The position numbers were made by a program, and so were the translations under genes. Below the pieces are notes generated by a model. The model worked only from the letters and a program-made list of their open reading frames with translations. It was not told where the DNA came from and made no database searches. Below are positions 11,188-60,049 of a DNA stretch of 64,000 bases, one piece after another (position 1 is the first letter of the stretch; every line of letters begins with the position of its first letter). This stretch comes from a virus. Taxonomy: Duplodnaviria; Heunggongvirae; Uroviricota; Caudoviricetes. Location of the stretch: positions 199,353-263,352 of the IMG/VR virus record IMGVR_UViG_3300042549_004104. One strand, given 5' to 3'.

Positions 11188-11949
11188 ATGGCTGGTCGAT
11201 CACTTGACGAATTAAAAGAAGAATTATTTAACAATCTAAAATTGCGTCTAGCAGACGGAATAGTAGATGTTGAACTTGACCCTCAACATTATGAGGCAGC
11301 ATACCAATATGCAATTAAAATCTATCGTCAACGAGCACAAAATTCCACAATAGAAAGTTACACAGTATTCAAGATGGAAAAGAATCAAAATGTGTATACT
11401 TTGCCTAGTGAATTTATTAATGTTAGACAATTATTTCGTAGAACTATTGGTTTAGAAACAGGTCCCGGGGCAACAAGTTTTGACCCATTTTCAAGTGCTA
11501 TTTTAAACACATACTTGCTTAACTATAACTATGCAGGTGGTTTAGCAACATATGATTTTTATGCACAGTATATTGAACTGGCTGCACGTATGTTCGGTGG
11601 ATTCGTCATCTATACATTCAATCCAGTTACAAAAGAATTAAAAATTGTACGTGATCCTAAGGCAACAGGTGAACAAGTTTTGATATGGGCTGATTTACAA
11701 AGACCGGATTCAGAATTACTACAAGATCCGGGTGCCGGCGTTTGGATTGGCGACTGGACACTCAGTGTGTTAAAAGCCACCTTGGGAGAAGCACGTGAAA
11801 AATTTGGAACTATTGTAGGTCCGGGTGGAGGCACCACATTGAATGGAGCACAACTAAAAGCAGAGTCAGTCGCAATGCAAACACAATTACTTGATGAATT
11901 GAAGCGTTATGTGGATTATAGTCAACCGTTAACTTGGGTACAAGGTTAA
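11188..11949 (+). CDS. gp13: Neck protein, T4 gp13-like
   Basis: LKLRLADGIVDVELD...YQYAIKIY N-terminus, EAREKF/GGGTTLNG C-terminus; ATAAATA 11163-11169 plus SD GGAGA. Confidence 0.7.
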   Translation: MAGRSLDELKEELFNNLKLRLADGIVDVELDPQHYEAAYQYAIKIYRQRAQNSTIESYTVFKMEKNQNVYTLPSEFINVRQLFRRTIGLETGPGATSFDPFSSAILNTYLLNYNYAGGLATYDFYAQYIELAARMFGGFVIYTFNPVTKELKIVRDPKATGEQVLIWADLQRPDSELLQDPGAGVWIGDWTLSVLKATLGEAREKFGTIVGPGGGTTLNGAQLKAESVAMQTQLLDELKRYVDYSQPLTWVQG

Positions 11950-12674
11950 TGAGAGCAGGTGAATTTGTTACTGAACTATTCCGTCCCGGTAATCAAAACT
12001 GGAAATGGAACCGTCAATCTCCGGATGAGGCAGTTGCAAATTTTACAGTAGGTAAAAGAAACTATGTATGGCAAGCCTATAATCATCACTTAGATGATAA
12101 ACCAGAAACATGGGAAATACAATTTCGTTTAATCAGAGACTTATTCGATCCTGAAAAATTATCATTATTTGGTACAACAGGTACAGGCAACTCAGCAGAA
12201 GTAATGTCAATTGTAGTAGACATAATGCGTGAATTCTTACAAGACTACGGTGATAATGTACAAAAAATTATATTTGATGCAAAAGAAAACAGTCGTATAG
12301 CATTATACACAAAAATGGTTAAGCGTTTAATACCCAATTGGAAATTAGAACAAGACTATAATCCAGAAATGGGATTAAGATTTATATTATCTAATCCAAA
12401 ACAAATTGATGAAGCATTTAGAGTCAGTTTAGACAAACTAGTTCCTACAAGAGATTCATACGACTGGAATCAAATGGATCCCGATGTAGTTGATATATTT
12501 GCTAAACGAGCAGGAACACCTGAATGGGACGATAAACTAGGTACATTATATGTTAGGCCTAGACCAGACGGAAAATATGATATTATAAATGGGCATCATC
12601 GTTATGCCGGATTAAAGAAAGCCGGAGTAAAACATGCATTGGTTACTCTGAAAAACAACGATGAAGATAATTAA
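11949..12674 (+). CDS. Two-module protein: unknown domain plus ParB/Srx-like domain, capsid-targeting-like N-terminus
   Basis: TAATG coupling to gp13; MRAGEFVTE start; IDE junction; YVRPRPDGKYDIINGHHRYAGLKKAG resembles the ParB core. Confidence 0.6.
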   Translation: MRAGEFVTELFRPGNQNWKWNRQSPDEAVANFTVGKRNYVWQAYNHHLDDKPETWEIQFRLIRDLFDPEKLSLFGTTGTGNSAEVMSIVVDIMREFLQDYGDNVQKIIFDAKENSRIALYTKMVKRLIPNWKLEQDYNPEMGLRFILSNPKQIDEAFRVSLDKLVPTRDSYDWNQMDPDVVDIFAKRAGTPEWDDKLGTLYVRPRPDGKYDIINGHHRYAGLKKAGVKHALVTLKNNDEDN

Positions 12675-43981: not shown

Positions 43982-46900
43982 ATGGCAGGAATAAGACAAA
44001 CACCAAATAGTAATGTACAGTCAACTACTGTAACCTACCCTTCACAGGCTACTGGATCTACCCCACAGTTGCAAATAATTAATAGTCCCGGTGGCGGCAA
44101 AGGTCAGGTTCAATTTCATTCTGATAATGGTTCATTTGCAGGTGATAGTAATTTTATTTGGAATAATAAAACTAGAACCATGAGTGTTCTGGGTAACATC
44201 AGAATAAGTGAAAACATCATTGGTAAATATTATACTAACTTAACTAATTTTAAAATTACAGGTGGCAATAGTGGACAAGTTCTTTCTACTAATGGTTCCG
44301 GAAATCTTAGTTGGGCTGACCAAATCAGTCCAGCCAATTATGGTAATAGCAATGTAGCAAATTACTTACCAACTTATACTGGTAATGTCTCTGCTAATTA
44401 TTTCATTGGTAATGGTAGTCAATTAACCGGCTTACCAACGCAATATTCAAATAGTAATGTAGCTAATTATCTTCCAACTTATACTGGTAATGTCTCTGCT
44501 AATTATTTCATTGGTAATGGTAGTCAATTAACCGGCTTACCAACGCAATATTCAAATAGTAATGTAGCTAATTATCTTCCAACTTATACTGGTAATTTAA
44601 ATGGCAGTAATTTAATTATATCTAATACAGGTTATATTTATAACATCAGTAGTACTGGATCAGCATCATTAACAACAGCTAATGTGTCAGCAAATTTAAC
44701 TGCTAATGCAATTTATACAGATAATTATTTCTATGCTAACGGTAGTCCTTACAGTGGCGGTGGCTCAGAACTAGTTAACGGTAATAATTCATTCGTATTA
44801 GATGTTGACGGTAATGTTGTATTTGAAGGTGATATAGCAGGCCAAGCTATTGACCGTGGTCTAGTATGGGACTATGGTGCTAATGCTAACGGTGTCAATA
44901 GTACGATTAGTCAAGATGGCAGTGGCTTAACAGTTCGTGCTTACACTGAAGATTCAGGTAATATTTCTGCATCGGTAAACATCGTTACTAATCAAGATGC
45001 AAACGCAATGTTTTGGGAATTTGATGGTTATGGTAATTTAACATTACCCGGTAACTTAATAGTACCAACAGGAAATATTGTATCAGATACTCTTAGCTCG
45101 CCGTTTAGTTCGGCTATAACAGGTATCACCACTGGTAATGCTACAGTAATTGTCGCTATAGCAGATTCGGTATTTCCAGATCCTTATTCAGGAACAGTAA
45201 CGATATCAGGTGTGACCGGCACAACAGAGGCTAATGACGTTTGGGGTTATGAAACAGTAGAAGTAAATGCATTCCAACTTTATACAGATGCTACATTAAC
45301 GACACCGGTAGATGGAACAACTTGGACTCCTTATGTCAGCGGCGGTACTGCTGTAGGAGTTGGTTTATATTCAAATTTAACTATCCAAGGTGGAAATGTT
45401 TCTATCGGTAGTAACGATAGCACTTGGGTGTTTGATACTAACGGTAACTTAACAGTACCTGGAACAATCAAGTCTGCTCAGCCATTAGTGTATCGTGGAT
45501 GGTATGCTACACTGAATCAAATCTATGGCGCTAGTGATCCAACAATTAACCAAATAGTGTTGAGCCAAAGTAGTTCAATTACGGGTAGTAACGAAAGCGC
45601 CGATACCAACAACGATGATTTCACAGTTACCGGGTTGACAGAATCAAACAGAACCGCAGTGATTACTCTTTACAGTGAAGAGGACGCAGTTCCCATTGTT
45701 CTCAGTGATGTGCGTAACTTTATTGAGACCTATATTGATTTAGTATTGTATGACGGCGAGACACTGAGAAATTCAGTGAGTAGCATTCAGACCGCATTTG
45801 CTGCCAACGAAACTGCTCTAATTGAGAGTGTTCCGCCTCTCACACTCAACACTAGTTTCAACTTCAATGCCATACAGAGTATATTCTCACTCACTGGATT
45901 TGCCAACACAGGTACAGGTACGGGTGCTGCGTTCTATTTTAACTACGACAACGATCCCGGCGGTACAGTAAACTACTACAGTTTAAGTGCCACTCTAATG
46001 GTACCAGGTTCAGGTTACACTGTACTTGATGAAATCACTGTTCCTGGTGCGGAATTCAATGGAACTTCACCTGCTAATGATATGATAATCACTGTGCAGG
46101 AGGTAGACGGCGACGGAGGTATCGTTGGATGGGGTGTCAGCGGAAGTATGACTCTAGCCACATATGAACAGTGCTTTGCAAGATACTTTATTAACGACGG
46201 TGACGGCGATGCATATGATTTAGGCAACTATGTGGGCACCGACTACAGTGAATGTACTTTTACAGCAACCAGCAACGCCGACGATGAACTAGTAGTCACA
46301 GCCGTCACGAAAGGTGCTTTGCTTCCGTTTATGACATTCTACGAACCCGTAGGTGATACCTGGGTTATGATACTGTGGCAGAAATCCGGTGCTACCGAAG
46401 GCGGACCAGGCACATACATTTGTCGCAGCCTCGATGAGTCCAATCTTCCGTCGGCTACTTACACAGCTAATGGCATTCAATATGCAATCAACGATGTTAT
46501 AACCGCTAGCTCCGATTGGAACGGCGGAGAATATGGCAGTATGGTCAGCACTACAGCAGGCATATGGTCTATGGTTGCCTTGTCTGAAGAAACCAGCATT
46601 AATAGTTTTAGCTATTTAGGTGAAACCGGTGCTGACGGTAGTGGAGAAAAAACAGCATACAGTAAGTTTGCCTTAGGCACTGCTCCGTTGACACTGGAAG
46701 CAGGTTATAATATTTGGACATTTAATCCTGATGGCAACCTAACGTTAGCAGGTGGCAACAGTGTAATTCAAAGTATTGCTAATAGTTCACTGGATCCAGA
46801 AAATTCAAATGTCAGCATAATGGTTTTTACACCTGATGCTCTCTATAGTTCACAGTCACTAGTACTTGACCCAACTGGTCCAAGTCATATTCACCTACGA

Positions 46901-49900
46901 TCACCAGGTCTAAATATTGACGAACCAGATGCTAATATATTCTTAGGTGGTGAAGATTCAAGTTTTGAAGTAGGCTACTATAACGGTGCCGCTCCTAACT
47001 TATTCGTTCACAGCGGCGGTAACACTTGGACATTTGGTACAGATGGTAATTTAATATTACCTACGGGAACTCCTAGCATCAACTATGCTAACGGAAGTCC
47101 ATATGGTGGAGGCGGTGCTAATACAGGCAATGTGACATTCAGTGGTGAGGCAGTGATAGGCACCGGCACCAGCAACACACAAAGTGGACTATATCTTGCA
47201 CCGGATCCGGCGTCCCTAGCAAATAGTTTATACCTGCGGGTACGCGGAAATATCCAGGACGAACCTACCCACATACATTTTGACACTGGCAACAATCAAT
47301 ACTATAATCAGTTCATTGGCGATGATAACAAGTATGTGCAGTTAGCTAACACTGGCAACATTGTAATCAATACTTCTGACTATGCAAGCAATACAGCACA
47401 GTGGACATTTGATACTGCTGGTAACTTAACACTACCAGAAGGTACTACTATAGGTGACACATCTGAGATTGTTACTGTTACATTAGACCAGTTTACTGAC
47501 GGTGGCTACCCTGGCACACAGGTGTTTAACAAAGTAAGTGACACTTTATACGAATTATCACCAGGTGGACCATATATGACACTGATTAGTGGTATATGGA
47601 GACTTAAGATTAGTACTGCCACTTATTATGACTCAACAGACCTTATAACTTGGGGAACTATAGCAGGTGGATTACCTACACCAGTCGGCACTCTAACCAC
47701 ATTAGCAATAATGAATCTAGGAGTAGGTGGTAATGTTTGGGCCTTTGGTGGAGATGGTAACTTATACTTGCCAGACACCACAAGCGTTCTTGCTAACGTA
47801 AGCATAAGACTTGAAGCAAATGATACTGGAAATATCACGGGATTAAGTGTAATCGGCGATTCCCACGCAAATCTATATGCTCATGGTAATGTGACGATAG
47901 TTAGCGATAGTAGCAATACTACTCCAACTTGGACATTTGGCACAGATGGCAGTTTAACATTGCCTTCAGACAGTTCTATTCTTACAAATGAAACAGCATT
48001 AAACATAGCAACTCATTCAACCGCAACTTACACATTTAATCAAGCCTACTGGGAAGCATTGAATGGTGATGTCACACGAATGTTTACACCTACAGGCGAC
48101 GCACAGTATTTTTCCTGTACAGTGACAGCCAATCAAGACGGTACCTATACTGTTGCTGACCCCACAGGCAATTCGTTTGATCCGGGATCTTGGTTCAAAA
48201 TTCCAGGCAATCAACTTGGTGGTGCTACACCTGCCAATGATATACAAATCACTGTGGCCACTGTAGACATTGATGGAGTAATATTGACTACCACTGTCAC
48301 AGGCGCAGCAGTTGGTAAACAATGGACCTTTGGTGAAGATGGTATTATAACAGTACCCGGACCAATTAGTGGATTGGGATATTCTAAACTAGATTTTACT
48401 ACTTACGGTTCCAACACAGTATATCTAACAACTACTAATGATGATTCTACTGCATTGTTTATGGGTGCGGTGTCTGCTGATTTATACGCTCATACAAATG
48501 TTAGTATTAGGACCAATACTGTAGGAACATCACAAGAATGGATATTTGATGATGCAGGTAATTTAACATTACCAGGTAATACATTTGCTGTTAACTATGC
48601 TAACGGCACACAAGTATCAATTAGTGGTGGGAGTAGCAGTAGTTCAAATATTAGTAATGGCAATAGTAATGTATCTATCGCAACAGCAAACGGTAATGTA
48701 ACTATTAACGCCGTTGGTAATAATGTAGTAACTATTACTGGCACTGGTGCTAACATCACCGGAACTGCAAACATCACCGGGAATGTAACTCCAGGAAATA
48801 TTACGTTTAGTAGTAACACCGGTCAAATCGTTTTTGGAACAGGGGCATTCATCAGTGGCAATGCTAACTCATTGACTAGAGATGGTAGTATTTTGTTACA
48901 ACCTTATACAGGTGCAGGATCTACATTTCCAGGTGTTATCATTGGTGGTGCAGGACGATTGCTTGCTCCAAACGGTGGAGTATTCCAGATATTCAACGCA
49001 AGTGATGTCACTTTCCAAGTAGCAATCAAATCAACATTAAGCACTGCGGCAACTTCAACAACGACCGGTGCATTAATAATTCCAGGTGGCGCAGGTCTTG
49101 CTGGTAGTATAACTACTGGCATAGGCGCATTGTTAACGGGTCCAACATTTACACCATTAGCTAATACAATGGCTGGGTTTGTATCTAACGTTAATTCATA
49201 CACACAATTAACTATTCAGAATAAGAGTACAGGAGCTGATGCTACTACAGATTTTATTGCTACTGCTGACAACGGTACTGATACTGTAAACTATGCTGAC
49301 TTTGGTATTATCAATAGTGGTTACGATGCTAATACGCCTACAAACAGTTTGGGTAACATTGTATTTGCGGCTGATACTTATTTGTATGCCCAAGGTAATG
49401 TAAGTAACACAAATCAATCGGGCGGTAATTTAGCAATTGGTACTACAATTGCAGGCAAATCTGTTAAGATTTTTGCAGGTGGCGTAACTAACAATAGTAT
49501 TATCGCTACTATCAGTAATACTGGAGTTGCAGTTAACGGTAATGTTACAGCAACTAATTTCAGTGGTAATATTTCTATCACGGGAAATGTCATTGGTACA
49601 ACTCCAAACGTTACATTAGTTGCAGGAAGTTATTCAACTGTGTTTGCCAACACTGGTGTAGCAACGTTTCCAGGCAATATCTCAACTACAGGTAATTTCG
49701 TGGGTAACGGCGCGGCTCTGACCAATGTTGCGGTTAGCACAACCGGTACTTGGACTGTGGCCACTGGCATAAATACCTACAGCATCACAGTCCCCATAAA
49801 CGGCAATTATCAATTATGGGTTAGGGGCAACATTCCTAATGGTATCATAACTTACCAAGCCACTGTGAGTGTTACTAATACCAATGTGCCAGTGTTGGGC

Positions 49901-50095
49901 ACACAGCGAGCCTGGAACTACACCGGCGGTGGAAGTCCAATATTATTAACAACTATGCCAACGCAGATTGTAGGAGCCGAAGGCACCATATCAACTACTG
50001 TCGTATCAACCACCACAGCTAATAGATTTGATTTTGTAATTAACAATTCTAGTGGATCAAGTCAAACAATATACTGGGGATATGTTACATTATGA
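43982..50095 (+). CDS. Very large mosaic tail fibre/receptor-binding protein
   Basis: 2037 aa, G/N/T/S-rich; nine W-x-F-x3-G-x-(L/I)-x-(L/V) repeats; NVANYLPTYTG tandem repeat. Confidence 0.75.
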   Translation: MAGIRQTPNSNVQSTTVTYPSQATGSTPQLQIINSPGGGKGQVQFHSDNGSFAGDSNFIWNNKTRTMSVLGNIRISENIIGKYYTNLTNFKITGGNSGQVLSTNGSGNLSWADQISPANYGNSNVANYLPTYTGNVSANYFIGNGSQLTGLPTQYSNSNVANYLPTYTGNVSANYFIGNGSQLTGLPTQYSNSNVANYLPTYTGNLNGSNLIISNTGYIYNISSTGSASLTTANVSANLTANAIYTDNYFYANGSPYSGGGSELVNGNNSFVLDVDGNVVFEGDIAGQAIDRGLVWDYGANANGVNSTISQDGSGLTVRAYTEDSGNISASVNIVTNQDANAMFWEFDGYGNLTLPGNLIVPTGNIVSDTLSSPFSSAITGITTGNATVIVAIADSVFPDPYSGTVTISGVTGTTEANDVWGYETVEVNAFQLYTDATLTTPVDGTTWTPYVSGGTAVGVGLYSNLTIQGGNVSIGSNDSTWVFDTNGNLTVPGTIKSAQPLVYRGWYATLNQIYGASDPTINQIVLSQSSSITGSNESADTNNDDFTVTGLTESNRTAVITLYSEEDAVPIVLSDVRNFIETYIDLVLYDGETLRNSVSSIQTAFAANETALIESVPPLTLNTSFNFNAIQSIFSLTGFANTGTGTGAAFYFNYDNDPGGTVNYYSLSATLMVPGSGYTVLDEITVPGAEFNGTSPANDMIITVQEVDGDGGIVGWGVSGSMTLATYEQCFARYFINDGDGDAYDLGNYVGTDYSECTFTATSNADDELVVTAVTKGALLPFMTFYEPVGDTWVMILWQKSGATEGGPGTYICRSLDESNLPSATYTANGIQYAINDVITASSDWNGGEYGSMVSTTAGIWSMVALSEETSINSFSYLGETGADGSGEKTAYSKFALGTAPLTLEAGYNIWTFNPDGNLTLAGGNSVIQSIANSSLDPENSNVSIMVFTPDALYSSQSLVLDPTGPSHIHLRSPGLNIDEPDANIFLGGEDSSFEVGYYNGAAPNLFVHSGGNTWTFGTDGNLILPTGTPSINYANGSPYGGGGANTGNVTFSGEAVIGTGTSNTQSGLYLAPDPASLANSLYLRVRGNIQDEPTHIHFDTGNNQYYNQFIGDDNKYVQLANTGNIVINTSDYASNTAQWTFDTAGNLTLPEGTTIGDTSEIVTVTLDQFTDGGYPGTQVFNKVSDTLYELSPGGPYMTLISGIWRLKISTATYYDSTDLITWGTIAGGLPTPVGTLTTLAIMNLGVGGNVWAFGGDGNLYLPDTTSVLANVSIRLEANDTGNITGLSVIGDSHANLYAHGNVTIVSDSSNTTPTWTFGTDGSLTLPSDSSILTNETALNIATHSTATYTFNQAYWEALNGDVTRMFTPTGDAQYFSCTVTANQDGTYTVADPTGNSFDPGSWFKIPGNQLGGATPANDIQITVATVDIDGVILTTTVTGAAVGKQWTFGEDGIITVPGPISGLGYSKLDFTTYGSNTVYLTTTNDDSTALFMGAVSADLYAHTNVSIRTNTVGTSQEWIFDDAGNLTLPGNTFAVNYANGTQVSISGGSSSSSNISNGNSNVSIATANGNVTINAVGNNVVTITGTGANITGTANITGNVTPGNITFSSNTGQIVFGTGAFISGNANSLTRDGSILLQPYTGAGSTFPGVIIGGAGRLLAPNGGVFQIFNASDVTFQVAIKSTLSTAATSTTTGALIIPGGAGLAGSITTGIGALLTGPTFTPLANTMAGFVSNVNSYTQLTIQNKSTGADATTDFIATADNGTDTVNYADFGIINSGYDANTPTNSLGNIVFAADTYLYAQGNVSNTNQSGGNLAIGTTIAGKSVKIFAGGVTNNSIIATISNTGVAVNGNVTATNFSGNISITGNVIGTTPNVTLVAGSYSTVFANTGVATFPGNISTTGNFVGNGAALTNVAVSTTGTWTVATGINTYSITVPINGNYQLWVRGNIPNGIITYQATVSVTNTNVPVLGTQRAWNYTGGGSPILLTTMPTQIVGAEGTISTTVVSTTTANRFDFVINNSSGSSQTIYWGYVTL
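44369..44596 (+). repeat. Exact 105 bp in-frame tandem repeat (about 2.2 copies)
   Basis: AACTTATACTGGTAAT recurs at 44371, 44476 and 44581 with identical intervening sequence. Confidence 0.9.
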
Positions 50096-51468
50096 TTATA
50101 CAAGGAGTAACACTCAGTAACACTATTGTATACGACTCATCGTTTAATTCTAATGGTGCATTGTTATATTTAGATGCTGGACAGACCGCTAGTTATCCAG
50201 GTTCAGGCACTACCTGGACTGATTTAAGTGGTAATGGTCGTAATGGAACATTAATAAGTGGACCAACTTATAGCAGAGCAGATGGCGGTTCTATTGTTTT
50301 TGATGGAACCAATGATTACGTTCAATGTTCAGGATCACTTACAGTAACAGAAGCCACTTTTTTAGTTTGGATGAGACGAAACGGACCCCAGGGCGATTAT
50401 GATGGCATTTTATATTCTAGAGGAGCGGCTGCCACTGGAATAGGTTTTTTTGGTATAACTAATAAAATTTCATATACTTGGAACAATGCCGTTAATACCT
50501 ATTCCTGGGATAGTGGATTGACAATACCAGATTTGACATGGTGTATGGTTGCAGTTTCCGTTACCAGTACAACAGCAACAGCATATCTGTGTCAATCCAG
50601 TGGAATCACTTCTGCCACCAATACTGTATCTCATACCAGCACCACCCTGGACGATATAAAGATTGGTCAAGATGATATTGTCAGTAGATATTTCAATGGT
50701 AGGATAGCCACAGCAGTGATCTATAATCGTGCCCTGTCGGCTGATGAAATCACGCAAAACTTCAACACACTACGTGGTAGAGTTGATACTGCGGTGACCA
50801 CTAACTTGGTTGCTTACTACAATCCCGACTTAACAACCAGTTACCCAGGATCAGGCACCACATTATTTGATATTTCCGGTAACGACCTAAACGGCACAAT
50901 GAGCAACATCACTTACACTGATCCTTACTTTACCTACAACGGCACAAGCAGCCAGGTCAATATCGCTGACAATGCACTACTAGAACCCGGTGCAGGTGAC
51001 TGGACCATGGAAGCATGGTTCAATACCACTGCATTTAAAACAGGCAGTGCTGGTACAATATTAGGCAAATTTGATCCAGGTGGTGCGTCACAAGATGTGT
51101 CATATAGTATTAGAACTAACAACACCGGTATTGTGTATGCTCAAATTGGCAATGGCACAACAGTTGTAAACAGTCCAAACTACCAAACTGTACTGAGTAC
51201 TTGGGTACAAGTAGTTTATGTTTGGAAAAATGTAGCATCTAACAGTTTAGAAGCCTATATAAATGGCGTAAGCATAGGATCAACAGCACACAGTTTTTCA
51301 AGCATACTCAATACGTCAGCAAACTTGTATATAGGGTCATACAACGGTGGGGAATACCTGCAATATTTTGATGGCAGAATAGGTATAACTAGACTGTACA
51401 ATGCCGCACTCACAGCCGAACAAGTACTACAGAACTACAATGCAAATAGGTCAGTATACGGATTATAA
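50092..51468 (+). CDS. Tandem LamG/concanavalin-A-like lectin domain protein
   Basis: Two SYPGSGTT..D.SGN..NGT units, each ending F.GRI....YN.AL....I.QN. Confidence 0.8.
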   Translation: MIIQGVTLSNTIVYDSSFNSNGALLYLDAGQTASYPGSGTTWTDLSGNGRNGTLISGPTYSRADGGSIVFDGTNDYVQCSGSLTVTEATFLVWMRRNGPQGDYDGILYSRGAAATGIGFFGITNKISYTWNNAVNTYSWDSGLTIPDLTWCMVAVSVTSTTATAYLCQSSGITSATNTVSHTSTTLDDIKIGQDDIVSRYFNGRIATAVIYNRALSADEITQNFNTLRGRVDTAVTTNLVAYYNPDLTTSYPGSGTTLFDISGNDLNGTMSNITYTDPYFTYNGTSSQVNIADNALLEPGAGDWTMEAWFNTTAFKTGSAGTILGKFDPGGASQDVSYSIRTNNTGIVYAQIGNGTTVVNSPNYQTVLSTWVQVVYVWKNVASNSLEAYINGVSIGSTAHSFSSILNTSANLYIGSYNGGEYLQYFDGRIGITRLYNAALTAEQVLQNYNANRSVYGL

Positions 51469-51513: not shown

Positions 51514-52197
51514 ATGATTAAATATAGACCGGCAAATACACGTAAACACATGGATGCAGGATGGATTGAGACATATCGTTCATTTAGTAATAACAGTTAT
51601 TGGGATCCTAACTATGTCAATTACTCTATATTAGAAGTAATTAATGATGATAGAGTTCAACCGCATAATTTTGTCCCTATTCATCAACACATGGATATGG
51701 AAATATTAGGATATGTTATTGATGGCCCATGCTATCATAATGACAATCTACGTAATATCTTGCAAGTACCAACAGGGGCTGTGCAACGTATGACCGCAGG
51801 GTCTGGGATTTGGCATCTTGAGGGTAATAATTCAGATAAACCTATTCGCTATTTGCAAATATGGTTACGTCCTAACAAGATGGGGATACAGCCAAAATAT
51901 GATGTATATCAGTTTGATCCAGAGGACAAACTAGATAAGTTTGCGGCTATCGCTAGTCAGAAAGGTAGCCCTGTTACTATTCAAAGTGATGCTATAGTAA
52001 CAGCGGGAATGTTCACAGAACCTCATACTGAAAATCTAGATCCTAGTCGCAAGTATTATCTGTACATGATCTCCGGAACAGCTACAATTAATGATAGTGA
52101 ATCAGTTGAGGGTGACGCATATATGTTTGAACAAGAGAAATTCCTAGAAATATCCAATCCCATCAACAGTGAAATGATACTTTTTAATTTACCGTGA
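51514..52197 (+). CDS. Pirin family cupin (YhhW-like)
   Basis: INDDRV, HQHMDMEILGYV, QRMTAGSGIWHLE and LQIW motifs. Confidence 0.88.
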   Translation: MIKYRPANTRKHMDAGWIETYRSFSNNSYWDPNYVNYSILEVINDDRVQPHNFVPIHQHMDMEILGYVIDGPCYHNDNLRNILQVPTGAVQRMTAGSGIWHLEGNNSDKPIRYLQIWLRPNKMGIQPKYDVYQFDPEDKLDKFAAIASQKGSPVTIQSDAIVTAGMFTEPHTENLDPSRKYYLYMISGTATINDSESVEGDAYMFEQEKFLEISNPINSEMILFNLP

Positions 52198-52242
52198 TAA
52201 ACTTTAAAAAGCGATAAATACATGATACATGGAATTCGTCTT

Positions 52243-54669
52243 ATGAAAATCAACACGCTTTTAGAATATACATCACCTAGCAGTCAGCCTAACCAAGCCG
52301 GGGGACAAGCCCCTGAGTTCGGCCGTGATCCTAACGTATTAGAAACTACTACTGGATCAGGTAGTGTTGCTACTGTTAGTAATCCAGTCGGTGGAATGCA
52401 AAGACGCAATAGTAAAGGTAGTATGTTTCAAGGTATCAAAACAAGCAAGAAGTTCGTTAACAGTCCGGTCACGGAAGATGAAATCAGTGAAGAACAACTA
52501 TTAACAAAAGAATTACGCAAAGAACTATTCAAAAGAGCTAAAGACCGTGACATAGGTAACAGACCAGAAAACCATGATATCATGTCAAAAGAATCAGATC
52601 CAGAATATGATGACGAAGCTGGTATGGCCACAACAAACTTACATACTGCATTAAGAGCAGTTGAAGGATTAAACAAAGTTATAGGTCCTAATGAGAATCT
52701 TCCTGAATGGGTACAAGAGAAAATTGCAATCGCAAATGATTACTTAGTTACATGCTGGGACTATATGATTAGTCAACATGAGCAAGGTCGTAAGTATGAA
52801 GTAGATGAAAATCAAGATTGGATGAAAGATATAGCAGCCATGGCTCATAAAATGGCTCCACAAGATAAAATGCGTGAGAGACAGGCACAACGTGACGCAC
52901 AAGCAAAAGCTGAACAACAACAAAGATTGCAACAAGATGTTGAAAATCTACCAGACTTAATATCACAATATAATGACATGGAAGCTGAGTATGAGTCAAT
53001 GGGCGGTAGTAATTGGCAGTATGCTGACCGTGAACAAAATCTAAGTGATAAAGAACGTAAAGCACGTGGTATGGAAACTTCCATGAGACATTTGGCTAAT
53101 AGAATTCATGCTGCCAAGAAAGCAAGCGAAGGATTAGCAGAATCTAAACCTGATTTTGGTAAGATGTTTGACAAGAAAATTGGTAAACATAATAAAGCAG
53201 TAGTTAAAACTAAAAAAGAAATTGGCACTAGAGTTGCTGATATCGGCGCCGGTGGCAAAGAATATAATGTTAAAACTGATAAAGAGTGGGACAAACAACA
53301 AGGTGTGGCGGAAGGCTCTGAATCAAGCGACAATCTAGTATCAACACTAAATTCGTTTGGGTACTACTCTGATAACGGCGATATTTATGTAAATGATAGT
53401 GGTGATAAGATTGCCCGTCAGGGTTCTAACTGGAAACATCAAAGTGGTAAACGTGGTATTGGCGCTGAAGAATTGGGTGAATTTTTAGGCTCAAAGCAAG
53501 GTGTGGCGGAAGGCTATCAGTTAGATGAAGGTGCCGTTGAAACTATTACAGCATTAGTCAAGAAGATTCCTGGTATTGGCAAATATTATCAAATGGCTCA
53601 ACAATACAAGCCACAATTGATTGAAATTCTAAAGACCAGCAAGTCTGGTAAAGAAGTTAAACAAAAGATGGAACAATTGGCAGCAGGTCAGTCGGCTACG
53701 GTCGCCGAATCAGGTATGATGAAACAACTTGGTGGCTTGGCAGTAGGTGGCGGCAGCATTTTATCTACAATGTGGATGAATGCTATGGGAATGATTGATG
53801 GTGTATTGGCACACGCAGCCGCTGGTGAAGTAGGAGGCGCAGTAGCATCTGGTAGTATCCTAGGATTGATTCCTGTAACACTAATGTTATTTGCGGCAAT
53901 GTTGTTATTCAAAGGATCAAAACAAAGTAGCGATGAAAAAGCACAAGCATTTCAAGCACAACGTGGTCAACAAGGTGTGGCGGAAACAGCACCGGATTCA
54001 GATAATCGTCAATGGTCTAACAAAGATATGGAAAGGCTACGAGTCGCTACCAAAGACTTTGATGATATAATGGCCAGCGATGCTTATGGACGCAGGATCA
54101 ATCAAGACGTAACAAAACAAAGATTAAAAACTAAACCTATAGCAGGACCTAAAGGTGTATTACCCGAGCAAGGTATGGGCGAAGGCACAGAACAACCTGT
54201 GAGTTTTAGAGAAATGGTCAATGTAGTTGACCAGCATTATCCAAAATACTATGCTGAACTATCTGGCAGTGATATTTCTGATAAACAATTTGAAAGAGCC
54301 ATTGTCAATGCTTATAAGAAAATTATGCAGAAGCAAGGCATGGCGGAAGGTATGGAAGGATCAGTTGTGTTCAGTGGTACAGGTGATAATGGCGGCAAGT
54401 ATGAAATTATTCAGTCTGGTCCCAATGACTTCATGATCCACGCCAACGGTAAACACATTGATTCTTATGATAGTCTACAACGAGCCATGAGTGTGCTACA
54501 AAATGAAGTGCCAGGATTGAAGAAAACTGTAGACGAAGAAAGCAAAGGTCTATGGGCTAACATACATGCTAAACGTGAACGTATTAAACAAGGTAGTGGT
54601 GAAAAGATGCGTAAGCCAGGTAGTACAGGAGCACCAACCGCAGATGCATTAAGAAAGTCAGCAAAATGA
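52243..54669 (+). CDS. Modular polyprotein-like protein with QGVAEG junction repeats
   Basis: Likely start MKINTLLE at 52243; ATAAATA 52214-52220; about a dozen unrelated segments joined at x-x-E sites. Confidence 0.75.
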   Translation: MKINTLLEYTSPSSQPNQAGGQAPEFGRDPNVLETTTGSGSVATVSNPVGGMQRRNSKGSMFQGIKTSKKFVNSPVTEDEISEEQLLTKELRKELFKRAKDRDIGNRPENHDIMSKESDPEYDDEAGMATTNLHTALRAVEGLNKVIGPNENLPEWVQEKIAIANDYLVTCWDYMISQHEQGRKYEVDENQDWMKDIAAMAHKMAPQDKMRERQAQRDAQAKAEQQQRLQQDVENLPDLISQYNDMEAEYESMGGSNWQYADREQNLSDKERKARGMETSMRHLANRIHAAKKASEGLAESKPDFGKMFDKKIGKHNKAVVKTKKEIGTRVADIGAGGKEYNVKTDKEWDKQQGVAEGSESSDNLVSTLNSFGYYSDNGDIYVNDSGDKIARQGSNWKHQSGKRGIGAEELGEFLGSKQGVAEGYQLDEGAVETITALVKKIPGIGKYYQMAQQYKPQLIEILKTSKSGKEVKQKMEQLAAGQSATVAESGMMKQLGGLAVGGGSILSTMWMNAMGMIDGVLAHAAAGEVGGAVASGSILGLIPVTLMLFAAMLLFKGSKQSSDEKAQAFQAQRGQQGVAETAPDSDNRQWSNKDMERLRVATKDFDDIMASDAYGRRINQDVTKQRLKTKPIAGPKGVLPEQGMGEGTEQPVSFREMVNVVDQHYPKYYAELSGSDISDKQFERAIVNAYKKIMQKQGMAEGMEGSVVFSGTGDNGGKYEIIQSGPNDFMIHANGKHIDSYDSLQRAMSVLQNEVPGLKKTVDEESKGLWANIHAKRERIKQGSGEKMRKPGSTGAPTADALRKSAK
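53299..54351 (+). repeat. Dispersed in-frame direct repeats CAAGG(T/C)(G/A)TGG(CG/GC)GAA(GG)
   Basis: Copies at 53299-53317 and 53497-53515 (identical 19-mer), 53971-53985, 54169-54186 and 54334-54351; related copy at 59561-59577. Confidence 0.9.
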
Positions 54670-55109
54670 GAATAAAAGACATAGTACAAGAAAATTTAGT
54701 AGCTGGTATAGTTGGTCATGAAATTAAAAAATTTCTTGACGAACCATTTCCTAAAGATAAAAAAGACGTAGAAGAAGACTGGCAAAAAGTCAATAAAAAA
54801 GATAAGACTGATGGAATGAGTAACAAAGCAGTTAAAGCATATCGTAGAGAGAATCCCGGTAGCAAATTAAAAACTGCTGTAACTAAAAAGCCAAGTAAGT
54901 TAAAGAAGGGTTCTAAAGATGCTAACCGCCGTAAGAGTTTCTGTGCTAGAATGAGTGGCATGAAAAAATCACGTGCTAGTGCTAAAACTAAACGAGATCC
55001 AGATAGCCCAATCAATAAAGCATTACGTAGATGGAATTGCGAATCTGTAGAACAAATGCAAGAATTAGTAATGATAGCAGAGCAATATTTAAAAGAGAAT
55101 AAGCAATGA
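54666..55109 (+). CDS. Basic phage protein (RRKSFCARM family) with capsid-targeting-like start
   Basis: MRIKDIVQE start; RRKSFCARMSG...DSPINKALRRWNC motif recalled from other T4-like phages. Confidence 0.65.
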   Translation: MRIKDIVQENLVAGIVGHEIKKFLDEPFPKDKKDVEEDWQKVNKKDKTDGMSNKAVKAYRRENPGSKLKTAVTKKPSKLKKGSKDANRRKSFCARMSGMKKSRASAKTKRDPDSPINKALRRWNCESVEQMQELVMIAEQYLKENKQ

Positions 55110-56840: not shown

Positions 56841-57281
56841 ATGTTATCAGACAGTTTAAAAGTATTATTGGCTTCAACAGAAGCATTTTCATTGAAGTCA
56901 CGCAACTTTCATTGGAACATTGAGGGCAGTAACTTTCCACAATATCATGAATTTTATGATTCATTATACAGTGAATCATATGGTACAGTAGATAAAATTG
57001 CTGAATATATTAGAGTGTTGGGTAACTATGCACCAGCAAGTTTGTCTCGCTATACTGAGCTATCAATCATTCAAGACCAAACAAAAATTCCACGTGCTGA
57101 ATTAATGTTTTTAGAAACTCAACAAGATATTGAAAAGATGGTTGAGCTTGTTGTTAATATGTTTGATGTTGCTACACAAGAACGTCAGCAAGGTATTGCT
57201 AATTACATGGCTGAATTACAAGACTTCTATGGTAAAAAAGCATGGATGGTTCGTAGCATTCTTAAAAAAGAACGTGAGTAA
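56841..57281 (+). CDS. dps: Dps/ferritin-like DNA protection protein
   Basis: NFHWNIEG and YHEFY...DKIAEYIR ferroxidase motifs; KAWMVRS C-terminus. Confidence 0.88.
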   Translation: MLSDSLKVLLASTEAFSLKSRNFHWNIEGSNFPQYHEFYDSLYSESYGTVDKIAEYIRVLGNYAPASLSRYTELSIIQDQTKIPRAELMFLETQQDIEKMVELVVNMFDVATQERQQGIANYMAELQDFYGKKAWMVRSILKKERE

Positions 57282-59200: not shown

Positions 59201-60049
59201 ATGAGAGCAAACGATTTTACCACCGAATCAGCAGTTGAAGACCTGAAGAACAAACTTCCTAGCCTTAAAAATACTAGTTACGATACCATTGACGAATTGA
59301 TGCAAAAAATCAGCCGTCGTTATAAACTGACTGGTAAAAAATTGCATGATTTATTTGTACACAAATATGGTCACACTCCAGACACGTGGATTAAGAAAAT
59401 AAAAAATAGATTAGGTGAAGAAGATATAACAGAAAGCGAACACGCTCATTATAGAAATTATTCAACATCCGATTTATTGCGTATGATTAAAACTATTAAA
59501 AGAGATGAAATTGGATTAAAAATCATAACTTCCATAACTAATGAAATTATGCGTAGAAAACAAGGCATGTCGGAAGGACCTAAAGAAGTTATAGGACTAG
59601 CAAAGTTTGCTATTGGTGGCGGAATACCCGGAGGACAACTTCCAGCTGATATATTAGGTGAAAAAGATGTGACAAAGGATTTGTCGGAAGACGTACAAGG
59701 ACCTGATGAAGTACAACAAATTAAAGACTTTATTAAATGGTCAATGAAAACATTGAATATTAAAACTAAACCCAAATTCACATTAAGTAAGAACACAGAA
59801 CAAGCACAAGCTGGTCATCATACTGGCGTACACAGTGGTGATAGAATTTGGGTATATATCGGCAATCGTAATCTAATAGATATTTTCCGTACTATATTCC
59901 ATGAATTGGTACATCAACGTCAAAGTGAACTTAACATGATTAAAGACGGTGACAGTTATCCTGGCTCACCAATCGAAGCAATGGCTGATATGATGGCGGG
60001 TAAGTATATTAAGATATACGGTAAAGAACACCCAGAAATCTTCCAATAA
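59201..60049 (+). CDS. Modular protein ending in a zincin-like HExxH domain
   Basis: MRANDFTTES start; junctions ITES, QGMSEG and DLSED; RTIFHELVHQRQ...IEAMAD. Confidence 0.65.
   Translation: MRANDFTTESAVEDLKNKLPSLKNTSYDTIDELMQKISRRYKLTGKKLHDLFVHKYGHTPDTWIKKIKNRLGEEDITESEHAHYRNYSTSDLLRMIKTIKRDEIGLKIITSITNEIMRRKQGMSEGPKEVIGLAKFAIGGGIPGGQLPADILGEKDVTKDLSEDVQGPDEVQQIKDFIKWSMKTLNIKTKPKFTLSKNTEQAQAGHHTGVHSGDRIWVYIGNRNLIDIFRTIFHELVHQRQSELNMIKDGDSYPGSPIEAMADMMAGKYIKIYGKEHPEIFQ

Follow-up and report, generated by a model that had tools for sequence, protein, structure and literature searches.

A candidate capsid-targeted cargo polyprotein in a T4-like lake phage, with modules exchanged at a DNA-conserved QGVAEG junction

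We have analyzed a 64,000-nucleotide stretch of a T4-like virus of the class Caudoviricetes (IMG/VR record IMGVR_UViG_3300042549_004104, positions 199,353 to 263,352; hereafter the window, in which coordinates are given unless stated otherwise). An 808-residue open reading frame (ORF) within it, 52243-54669 on the + strand, is composed of about ten modules, several of which meet at a short DNA repeat encoding QGVAEG or a close variant. Comparison of related loci indicates that modules are exchanged at this junction. The interpretation that we favor, by a modest degree of belief, is that the ORF encodes a capsid-targeted late cargo polyprotein that would be cut by the head protease, and that the junction doubles as a microhomology for in-frame recombination.

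Under this model, the leader MKINTLLE, of the T4 internal-protein type, would take the precursor to the prohead core of the assembling head. A gp21-type serine protease would then act on the leader, VLE-34 and every Q-G-[V/M]-[A/G]-E / G junction, cutting behind Glu (the slash marks the cut) and yielding about ten products of 4-18 kDa, among them a hydrophobic one with a glycine zipper and several that are basic. These products would remain in the head and go into the host along with the DNA. Recombination at the junction, 18-21 nt of GC-rich and near-uniform DNA, would swap, add or delete modules in frame and restore a functional site.

Results

The polyprotein gene and its junction repeat

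The source record, from an uncultured freshwater jumbo phage, comprises 359,563 bp with 36% G+C. As a preliminary description of this DNA had claimed, the frame at 52243-54669 is uninterrupted and translates to 808 residues. An upstream ATG at 52222 would give an 815-residue reading, although the starts of relatives (MKISSLFE, MKISTLLE) match the equivalent of 52243 and not that ATG. The five in-frame repeats announced for this gene were all found, spaced by 198, 474, 198 and 165 bp. Those at 53299 and 53497 are the identical 19-mer CAAGGTGTGGCGGAAGGCT, and those at 53971, 54169 and 54334 are near copies:

53299..53317, + strand: junction 1, QGVAEG (19-mer)
53497..53515, + strand: junction 2, QGVAEG (same 19-mer as junction 1)
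53971..53989, + strand: junction 3, QGVAET
54169..54187, + strand: junction 4, QGMGEG
54334..54352, + strand: junction 5, QGMAEG

With up to three mismatches to the 17-mer allowed, the window contains six matches where 0.04 are expected, and six were reached in none of 100 shuffles. The sixth match, at 59561, encodes QGMSEG in a separate ORF (59201-60049). The reported retention of GTG and GCG codons likewise stood: junction Val is GTG in three of three cases and junction Ala is GCG in four of four, whereas elsewhere in the gene the counts are 4/40 and 1/67, respectively. On inspection of its sequence, the 18-mer has no hairpin, is not self-complementary and lacks a usable start-codon spacing.

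Modules of the polyprotein

About a dozen unrelated segments had been proposed. Mapping of related loci (L numbers) onto the protein resolves about ten modules, with sharp boundaries in the C-terminal half and fuzzy ones in the N-terminal half. In the C-terminal half, ends of high-scoring segment pairs coincide with the junctions, at residues 418, 581, 643-650, 697-704 and 767; seven homologous segments start at residue 418 and five end at residue 581. Among the further junctions that had been suggested, VLE (34), VDE (189 and 765) and LAE (300) exist, and LDE (429) lies within a module; of these non-QGVAEG sites, only LAE-300 and VDE-765 are close to homology breakpoints. The parts of the protein are as follows:

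52243..52266, + strand: leader MKINTLLE (aa 1-8), capsid-targeting-like, ending hydrophobic-hydrophobic-Glu
52267..52554, + strand: N-terminal region (aa 9-104) with candidate site VLE-34; common to L004, L013, L012 and L029
52555..52827, + strand: module A (aa ~105-195, core 121-182), a helical hairpin
52828..53142, + strand: Q/E/R-rich module (aa 196-300) with C-terminal LAE; homologs in L033 and L134
53143..53298, + strand: basic module (aa 301-352); homologs in L009, L007, L154 and L160
53318..53496, + strand: module between the two identical 19-mers (aa 359-418); predicted product of 66 aa, 358-423
53516..53970, + strand: hydrophobic glycine-zipper module (aa 425-576), by hydropathy
53990..54168, + strand: module (aa 583-642); homologs in L014, L079, L027/L028 and L021, ending at 648-650
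54188..54333, + strand: module (aa 649-697); homologs in L023 and L017 cover 643-702/704, junction to junction
54353..54537, + strand: module (aa 704-765) with C-terminal VDE; homologs in L004, L090, L158 and L110
54538..54669, + strand: C-terminal basic module (aa 766-808, GLWANIHAKRERIK...) of pI 10.7, plus stop; PHROG 16028, E = 7e-22

Module A occurs in more than 50 different protein contexts, and also in small proteins of cultured cyanomyoviruses, where it lacks the junction. Its AlphaFold2 model has a predicted local distance difference test (pLDDT) score of ~90 across the two helices, and a Foldseek search against the PDB returned no match. A 179-aa protein of the cultured cyanomyovirus Synechococcus phage S-H9-1 (QPB08180.1; L084 2638-3177) shares module A and a second polyprotein module, AK.ERMVKHIKK..IAYATAWK; it begins with MKTFKQLRE, which is like the T4 capsid-targeting sequence, and has no QGVAEG junction. 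The basic product predicted for aa 301-357, which includes QGVAE of junction 1, has a pI of 9.6. The hydrophobic module contains one clear transmembrane-like segment (~aa 530-560) preceded by a weaker one; its AlphaFold2 model is unreliable (pLDDT 44). Junctions bracket this module in at least nine proteins that are otherwise unrelated, at 74-98% identity. Module 704-765 is followed by a KGVAE junction in L004 and in contigs from lake RNA libraries, and the VDE at its end here is possibly a decayed junction.

Modules are also found as free-standing small proteins in other phages, and they are under purifying selection (3 amino-acid versus 16 synonymous changes over 158 codons). The whole polyprotein (P0001) matches no Pfam family and, among PHROGs, only families of unknown function; two modules used as ESM Atlas queries retrieved only viral hypothetical clusters, below 0.9. 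A fragment-stacked alignment of the whole protein, made for folding, was misaligned by MAFFT and was dropped.

Exchange of modules between relatives

Module content and order had been expected to vary among relatives with breakpoints at the repeat, and such variation is seen when L004/L005, L090 and L007 are compared with the window. In L004/L005 the hydrophobic module is 98% identical, modules 582-647 and 648-702 are absent, and two other modules, each bounded by Q/KGVAE, are present. L090 contains the 358-423 module inside the same two exact brackets (77% identity over 359-418), followed directly by the 703-767 module, and has an extra module upstream; it too is missing the segments corresponding to aa 583-642 and 649-697. 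L007 matches the window over residues 320-581 and diverges after. Adjacent modules are 55, 98, 77 and 90% identical to those of L004, and because these values differ widely, we take the locus to have a mosaic history rather than one of simple deletion.

Breakpoints between segments of at least 80% identity were then located across 149 non-redundant junction-bearing ORFs. A quarter of them (25%) fall within 2 aa of a junction Glu, compared to 2.7% at random (9-fold), and 45% fall within 8 residues of one, compared to 8.8% at random. We infer that recombination at the repeat is the cause of module exchange; such recombination between junctions would account for the mosaic relatives, since modules would thereby be exchanged in frame.

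The stretch is contained in at least 18 lake-water metagenome runs. Only contig ends and branch points were entered into evidence from these data: contigs end or branch at 53300, 53495-53515, 53985-53988 and 54518, and the 358-423 module with both brackets forms a separate contig (53300-53525). Junction-to-junction "skips" in these contigs were not counted as deletion variants, given that their sides, of about 20 nt, are the repeat itself. Contigs from lake RNA libraries also carry parts of this polyprotein gene. In lake metatranscriptome runs X21 and X22, contigs of 2.5 kb and 5.6 kb contain three junction copies each and belong to other polyprotein genes. It is possible that polyprotein genes are transcribed in lakes, though the RNA-library contigs may also stem from DNA carry-over.

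Spread and conservation of the junction

The exact 18-mer is present in at least 120 IMG/VR stretches. All but one of 145 non-redundant exact copies (144/145) are in the QGVAEG frame, within open frames of median length 593 aa. Junction-bearing contigs resemble pieces of ~350-kb genomes. A search of 185,579 prokaryote genomes returned 56 exact matches, of which 53 come from DNA with a GC content of 50% or more and were taken as chance or unrelated. Of the low-GC matches in prokaryote bins, only L260 (CAILDT010000116.1; 8.9 kb, 39% GC), from a lake Bacteroidetes metagenome-assembled genome bin, is clearly a polyprotein of the QGVAEG kind, with three exact junctions that share one frame of 510 aa. 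The contig probably derives from a phage and was binned together with Bacteroidetes DNA, so that it gives only a faint hint of a host for the clade. A second low-GC match, L218, has one junction in a 607-aa frame and is a possible polyprotein.

Residue conservation was assessed at 465 in-frame sites out of 476 near copies with four or fewer mismatches. Numbered as for a protease site with the putative cut after Glu, the positions are conserved as follows:

P5: Gln, 74%
P4: Gly, 91%
P3: Val, Met, Leu or Ile, 99.4%
P2: Ala, 90%
P1: Glu, 98.7%
P1': Gly, 72%

The nucleotides that vary least are positions 1-2 of the Glu codon and position 2 of the Val codon, and third positions vary more. Codon use was examined at 92 independent sites picked by peptide alone, and hence codon-unbiased. 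Synonymous codons in the repeat proved to be far off background, in keeping with the preliminary description: GTG encodes 52 of 66 junction Val residues (79%, versus 14%) and GCG encodes 57 of 72 junction Ala residues (79%, versus 7%). The preceding codon is G-ended, be it one for K, E or Q. The junction DNA consensus, of about 20 nt, has 67% G+C, compared to 36% for the genome, and there is one global consensus across phages. Common descent by copying and selection on the DNA may explain this codon bias equally well.

Two further ideas concerning the junction were rejected. Local homogenization was dropped, as junctions of the same gene resemble each other no more than junctions of different genes do, in a set that is biased by the way in which loci were retrieved. 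GTG, ATG or TTG stands at P3 in 84% of sites; internal translation starts at the junction were discarded, given that the sole purine-rich stretch lies 1 nt 5' and no conserved start is located 5-9 nt past either AAGG.

The head protease and its sites

In T4 and in giant phages, prohead proteases cleave after Glu (PMC5694885). The genome that contains the window encodes a gp21-type Peptidase_S77 prohead protease (genome 90475-91110, - strand; 96.4 bits to PF03420, cut-off 27), whose gene adjoins a scaffold gene, as well as a gp23-type major capsid protein (MCP). The protease was found in 12 of 25 junction-bearing contigs and in four of the five that are at least 90% complete. Reference sites in T4 (from NC_000866; '/' is the cut) are FLTE/AEIGG in gp23 and MAKINELLRE/S at the start of gp24, or LTE/A and LRE/S in short. 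Across 13 clade members the N-terminus of the MCP is nearly invariant, with a putative maturation site L-[A/S/K/L]-E / [S/N]-A-T-A-G. The V/M-A-E / G of the junction has the hydrophobic-x-Glu pattern expected of a prohead-protease site. The proposal that the repeat encodes such a site thus stands in part, in that an S77 gene is present in the genome, P1 and P3 are near-invariant and P2 is free; the head protease would, judging from these sequence features, cleave at the junction.

Next to the protease gene, an acidic 276-aa head-core-like protein (genome G000 91126-91956, - strand) has the junction-like sequence EEQGMTEEE. EGM.E is retained there in the orthologs from 2 of 12 relatives and is absent in the others.

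Leaders and the capsid link

The T4 capsid-targeting sequence (CTS) is MKTYQEFIAE (PMC8442874). The leader MKINTLLE is comparable, at the level of pattern only, to the MAKINELLRE of T4 gp24 and to the T4 CTS. Other junction-bearing ORFs start with MRANEFITE, MRAQEFITE or MKISSLFE, of which MRAQEFITE is close to the T4 CTS. Leader-type N-termini are found in 46 of 84 complete junction ORFs, compared to 129 of 1016 controls (p = 6e-18), and at least seven ORFs of this genome have them. In some single-module proteins the junction immediately follows the leader; because of this arrangement, a role as a mere inter-domain linker is argued against. Near-identical leaders occur in further ORFs at 171635-172006, 324874-326511 and 326508-327398 of genome G000 and at 11949-12674 of the window; those of this group, MRANEFISE, MRAREFIVE, MRANEFITE and MRAGEFVTE, are the closest to the T4 CTS (QEFI.E). 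One of the G000 leader ORFs, of 296 aa, also has a QQGVAEG junction.

Within 52333-52410 (aa 31-56), VLE-34 is followed by TTTGSGSVATV..GGMQRR, a box that resembles the maturation site and mature N-terminus of the clade MCP. It is also found in L059, L088, L097, L007 and L033, with the pattern hydrophobic-x-E, S/T-A/T-T-A-G..S-[IV]-A-T-V..GG.Q.R, to be compared with ..LAE/SATAGATSAGNIATLNRV in the MCP. The N-terminal 120 aa gave no significant BLASTP match to the MCP of the same genome, and the similarity is therefore one of pattern. The box may mimic the protease site or the core-binding arm of the capsid protein. 

Pfam domains in 49 other junction polyproteins include GNAT, ParB_N, amidoligase, nucleotidyltransferase, deaminase, TonB_C/TolA, LysM, the RNA polymerase-binding SutA and DUF6321. 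By their domain assignments, these cargoes appear to be of the conflict or host-takeover type, like those of polyvalent or injected proteins (PMC5512222).

Neighboring genes

Features around the polyprotein gene are as follows:

52213..52220, + strand: late-promoter-like motif GATAAATA, 23 nt 5' of the polyprotein ATG
54666..55109, + strand: 147-aa ORF with leader MRIKDIVQE and DUF6321; its start overlaps the polyprotein stop (ATGA)
59201..60049, + strand: second junction-bearing ORF, 282 aa, with leader MRANDFTTE, QGMSEG at aa 121-126 and a C-terminal HExxH (FHELVHQRQ)

ATAAATA is also located 5' of the portal gene, the head-core gene and the QGMSEG ORF of the same genome, in the last case 7 nt upstream; the probability of its chance occurrence is estimated from base composition at ~2% per 70-nt upstream window. 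Elsewhere, junction proteins have DUF6321 joined in frame as their C-terminal module (L002; 4 of 49 junction polyproteins). The ORF after the DUF6321 ORF has a GP88 domain. The 282-aa ORF has no Pfam match, and its HExxH end may be a small zincin-like peptidase module. A pirin-like (cupin) gene (51514-52197, + strand) and a ferritin/Dps-like gene (56841-57281, + strand) lie on either side of the polyprotein operon. Farther upstream, a 2037-aa ORF (43982-50095, + strand) has no match in Pfam or PHROG; the gene after it (50092-51468) encodes a Laminin_G_3 protein of 458 aa, of the "virion structural protein" type.

Discussion

Several observations weigh against a capsid-targeted polyprotein that is recombined at its junctions. 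Some 160 kb separate the polyprotein gene from the head-gene cluster. At P3 and P1', the junction has V/M and G, whereas putative MCP sites of the clade and T4 sites have L (or I) and S/N/A. The transmembrane-like module could direct the precursor to the membrane instead of the head. The 43-residue C-terminal module is widespread in T7-like cyanophages, pelagiphages and roseophages, and T7-like phages, to our knowledge, have no prohead protease. No exact 18-mer was found in 50,697 cultured-phage records. About half of the sharp breakpoints are elsewhere or at decayed sites with no recognizable junction. Finally, when variation inside the repeat was compared with that outside it among orthologs of the hydrophobic module, as the preliminary description had suggested, synonymous differences were only slightly lower at the junction (21%) than in the core (26%).

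It is doubtful, in our estimation, that the product is instead an uncleaved multidomain "polyvalent" protein, packaged or not, in which QGVAEG is a favored flexible linker inherited with the cassettes. Phage polyvalent proteins of 2-15 domains do exist, some of them delivered unprocessed (PMC5512222), and the sequence flanking the junction is polar and, by prediction, unstructured. A complex prediction for the protease (P0002) and polyprotein residues 404-440 had a score of 0.00, which counts neither way on binding. Linkers, however, are not normally 98-99% fixed at two positions around a free one, and where the junction directly follows the leader of a single-module protein there is nothing to link. 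The free-standing occurrence of modules in other phages, and a junction pattern that suits the specificity class of the protease found in these genomes, also speak for processing. Processing might take place outside the capsid, with a different protease, of phage or host, cutting the polyprotein in the cytoplasm or on the membrane. The distance from the head genes, the membrane-type module and the HExxH motif in the other junction ORF of the window would all suit such a scheme. We nevertheless consider it quite unlikely, for the leaders resemble the T4 CTS and the gp24 propeptide, an MCP-maturation-like box follows the leader, the late-promoter-like motif is common to head genes, and cutting after Glu with a hydrophobic P3 is a hallmark of the head protease family.

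The codon data bring in an explanation of another kind, in which the junction acts first of all as a signal in nucleic acid (a hotspot of recombination or an enzyme target in DNA, or a pause or processing site in mRNA) and the peptide is a by-product. Rare GTG and GCG codons fixed at ~79% against backgrounds of 14% and 7%, a preceding codon that is G-ended regardless of the amino acid, an 18-mer of 67% GC in a 36% GC genome and a single global consensus among phages are what such a signal might leave. Yet 144 of 145 exact and 465 of 476 near copies lie within long ORFs and share one frame, with no intergenic or out-of-frame cases, variation is lowest at nucleotides that define amino acids and higher at third positions, and neither a hairpin nor a usable start-codon spacing is present; we judge this explanation very unlikely. 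A version that keeps the polyprotein and adds to it would have the junction dual-coded, selected both as a head-protease site and as a dedicated DNA recombination site, or "exon-shuffling" joint. The fixed rare codons would then be kept for recombination or for a recognizing factor and not by mere copying. We regard this version as possible and, on balance, improbable.

The T4 capsid-targeting sequence and its processing by gp21 were reportedly described by Mullaney and Black in 1996. The capsid-targeted cargo polyprotein that we favor is similar to T4 IPI/IPII/IPIII, Alt and gp24 (PMC8442874; PMC5694885) in its short leader ending hydrophobic-x-Glu, in the S77 protease and in cutting after Glu, which is here predicted. 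It also shares with the T4 internal proteins a variable, non-essential-looking cargo and a gene away from the head cluster. The T4 internal proteins, however, are single small proteins with one cut, whereas here up to nine junctions join about ten modules, a single fixed hexapeptide, itself fixed in its codons, recurs as the internal site, and packaging is presumed. Pfam and PHROG searches revealed no homology to IPI/IPII/IPIII or Alt.

Polyvalent proteins (Iyer et al. 2017, PMC5512222) likewise combine many unrelated domains per polypeptide with mosaicism and predicted packaging, and the cargo repertoire of the relatives described here is similar (ParB_N, methyltransferase, GNAT). Their range of 2-15 distinct mosaic domains includes the present protein, with its ~10 modules that each occur in other contexts. 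By Pfam, none of the conflict-related domains (MPTase, ParB, methyltransferase) is found in P0001 itself, though they are present in other junction polyproteins. No conserved junction has been described for polyvalent proteins, the word "linker" being absent from PMC5512222, and their processing, in the cases where it was proposed, was assigned to a zincin-like peptidase domain of the protein itself. The modules here, unlike those domains, are mostly tiny (median 78 aa) and unnamed.

The PeSL (promoter-early stem-loop) cassettes (Arbiol et al. 2010, PMC2839356; Comeau et al. 2014, PMC4122927) likewise involve a short DNA-conserved repeat, spread through hyperplastic regions, at which modules are inserted, lost or swapped between related T4-type phages. 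A PeSL, however, is an intergenic unit of promoter and terminator by which entire genes are moved, while the junction is coding, carries neither promoter nor hairpin and moves protein segments within genes; instead of an intergenic sigma-70-type early promoter with a terminator stem-loop, 144 of 145 copies lie in frame within ORFs. The inner-body and ejection proteins of phiKZ, 201phi2-1 and SPN3US (PMC5694885, PMC10052503) are cut several times after Glu by a gp21-related prohead protease. That protease is of the S80 type, with the site S/A/G-x-E or A-x-E, in contrast to S77 and a P3 of V/M/L/I in 99.4% of sites here; its substrates are paralogous structural families and not exchangeable unrelated modules, and a DNA-conserved site is not known among them. 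Positive-strand RNA viruses likewise have one ORF, repeated short recognition sites and many products, the last of these predicted here. They are eukaryotic viruses, however, whose polyproteins comprise essential replication and capsid proteins with a cis-encoded protease and do not exchange cassettes at a fixed nucleotide repeat. We found no published description of a QGVAEG motif system in the literature, and nothing relevant on DUF6321.

Conclusions

Junction-bearing ORFs should not be handled in annotation as single proteins of unknown function. Splitting after QG[VM]AE provides a rule by which hundreds of unannotated giant ORFs can be divided into functional units for screening, and the order leader, junction, payload is a candidate natural design for capsid cargo. 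If the capsid-targeted polyprotein model is true, one gene would supply about ten small proteins to the host at the moment of infection, and the set of modules would be re-dealt among phages through a universal 18-21-nt joint. This would constitute a new route for diversifying early-acting proteins, probably of anti-defense or host-takeover function, by protein-level cassette exchange in bacterial viruses. Should the junction be dual-coded as well, this clade of freshwater jumbo phages would share a pool of injected effectors from which new combinations could arise in one step.

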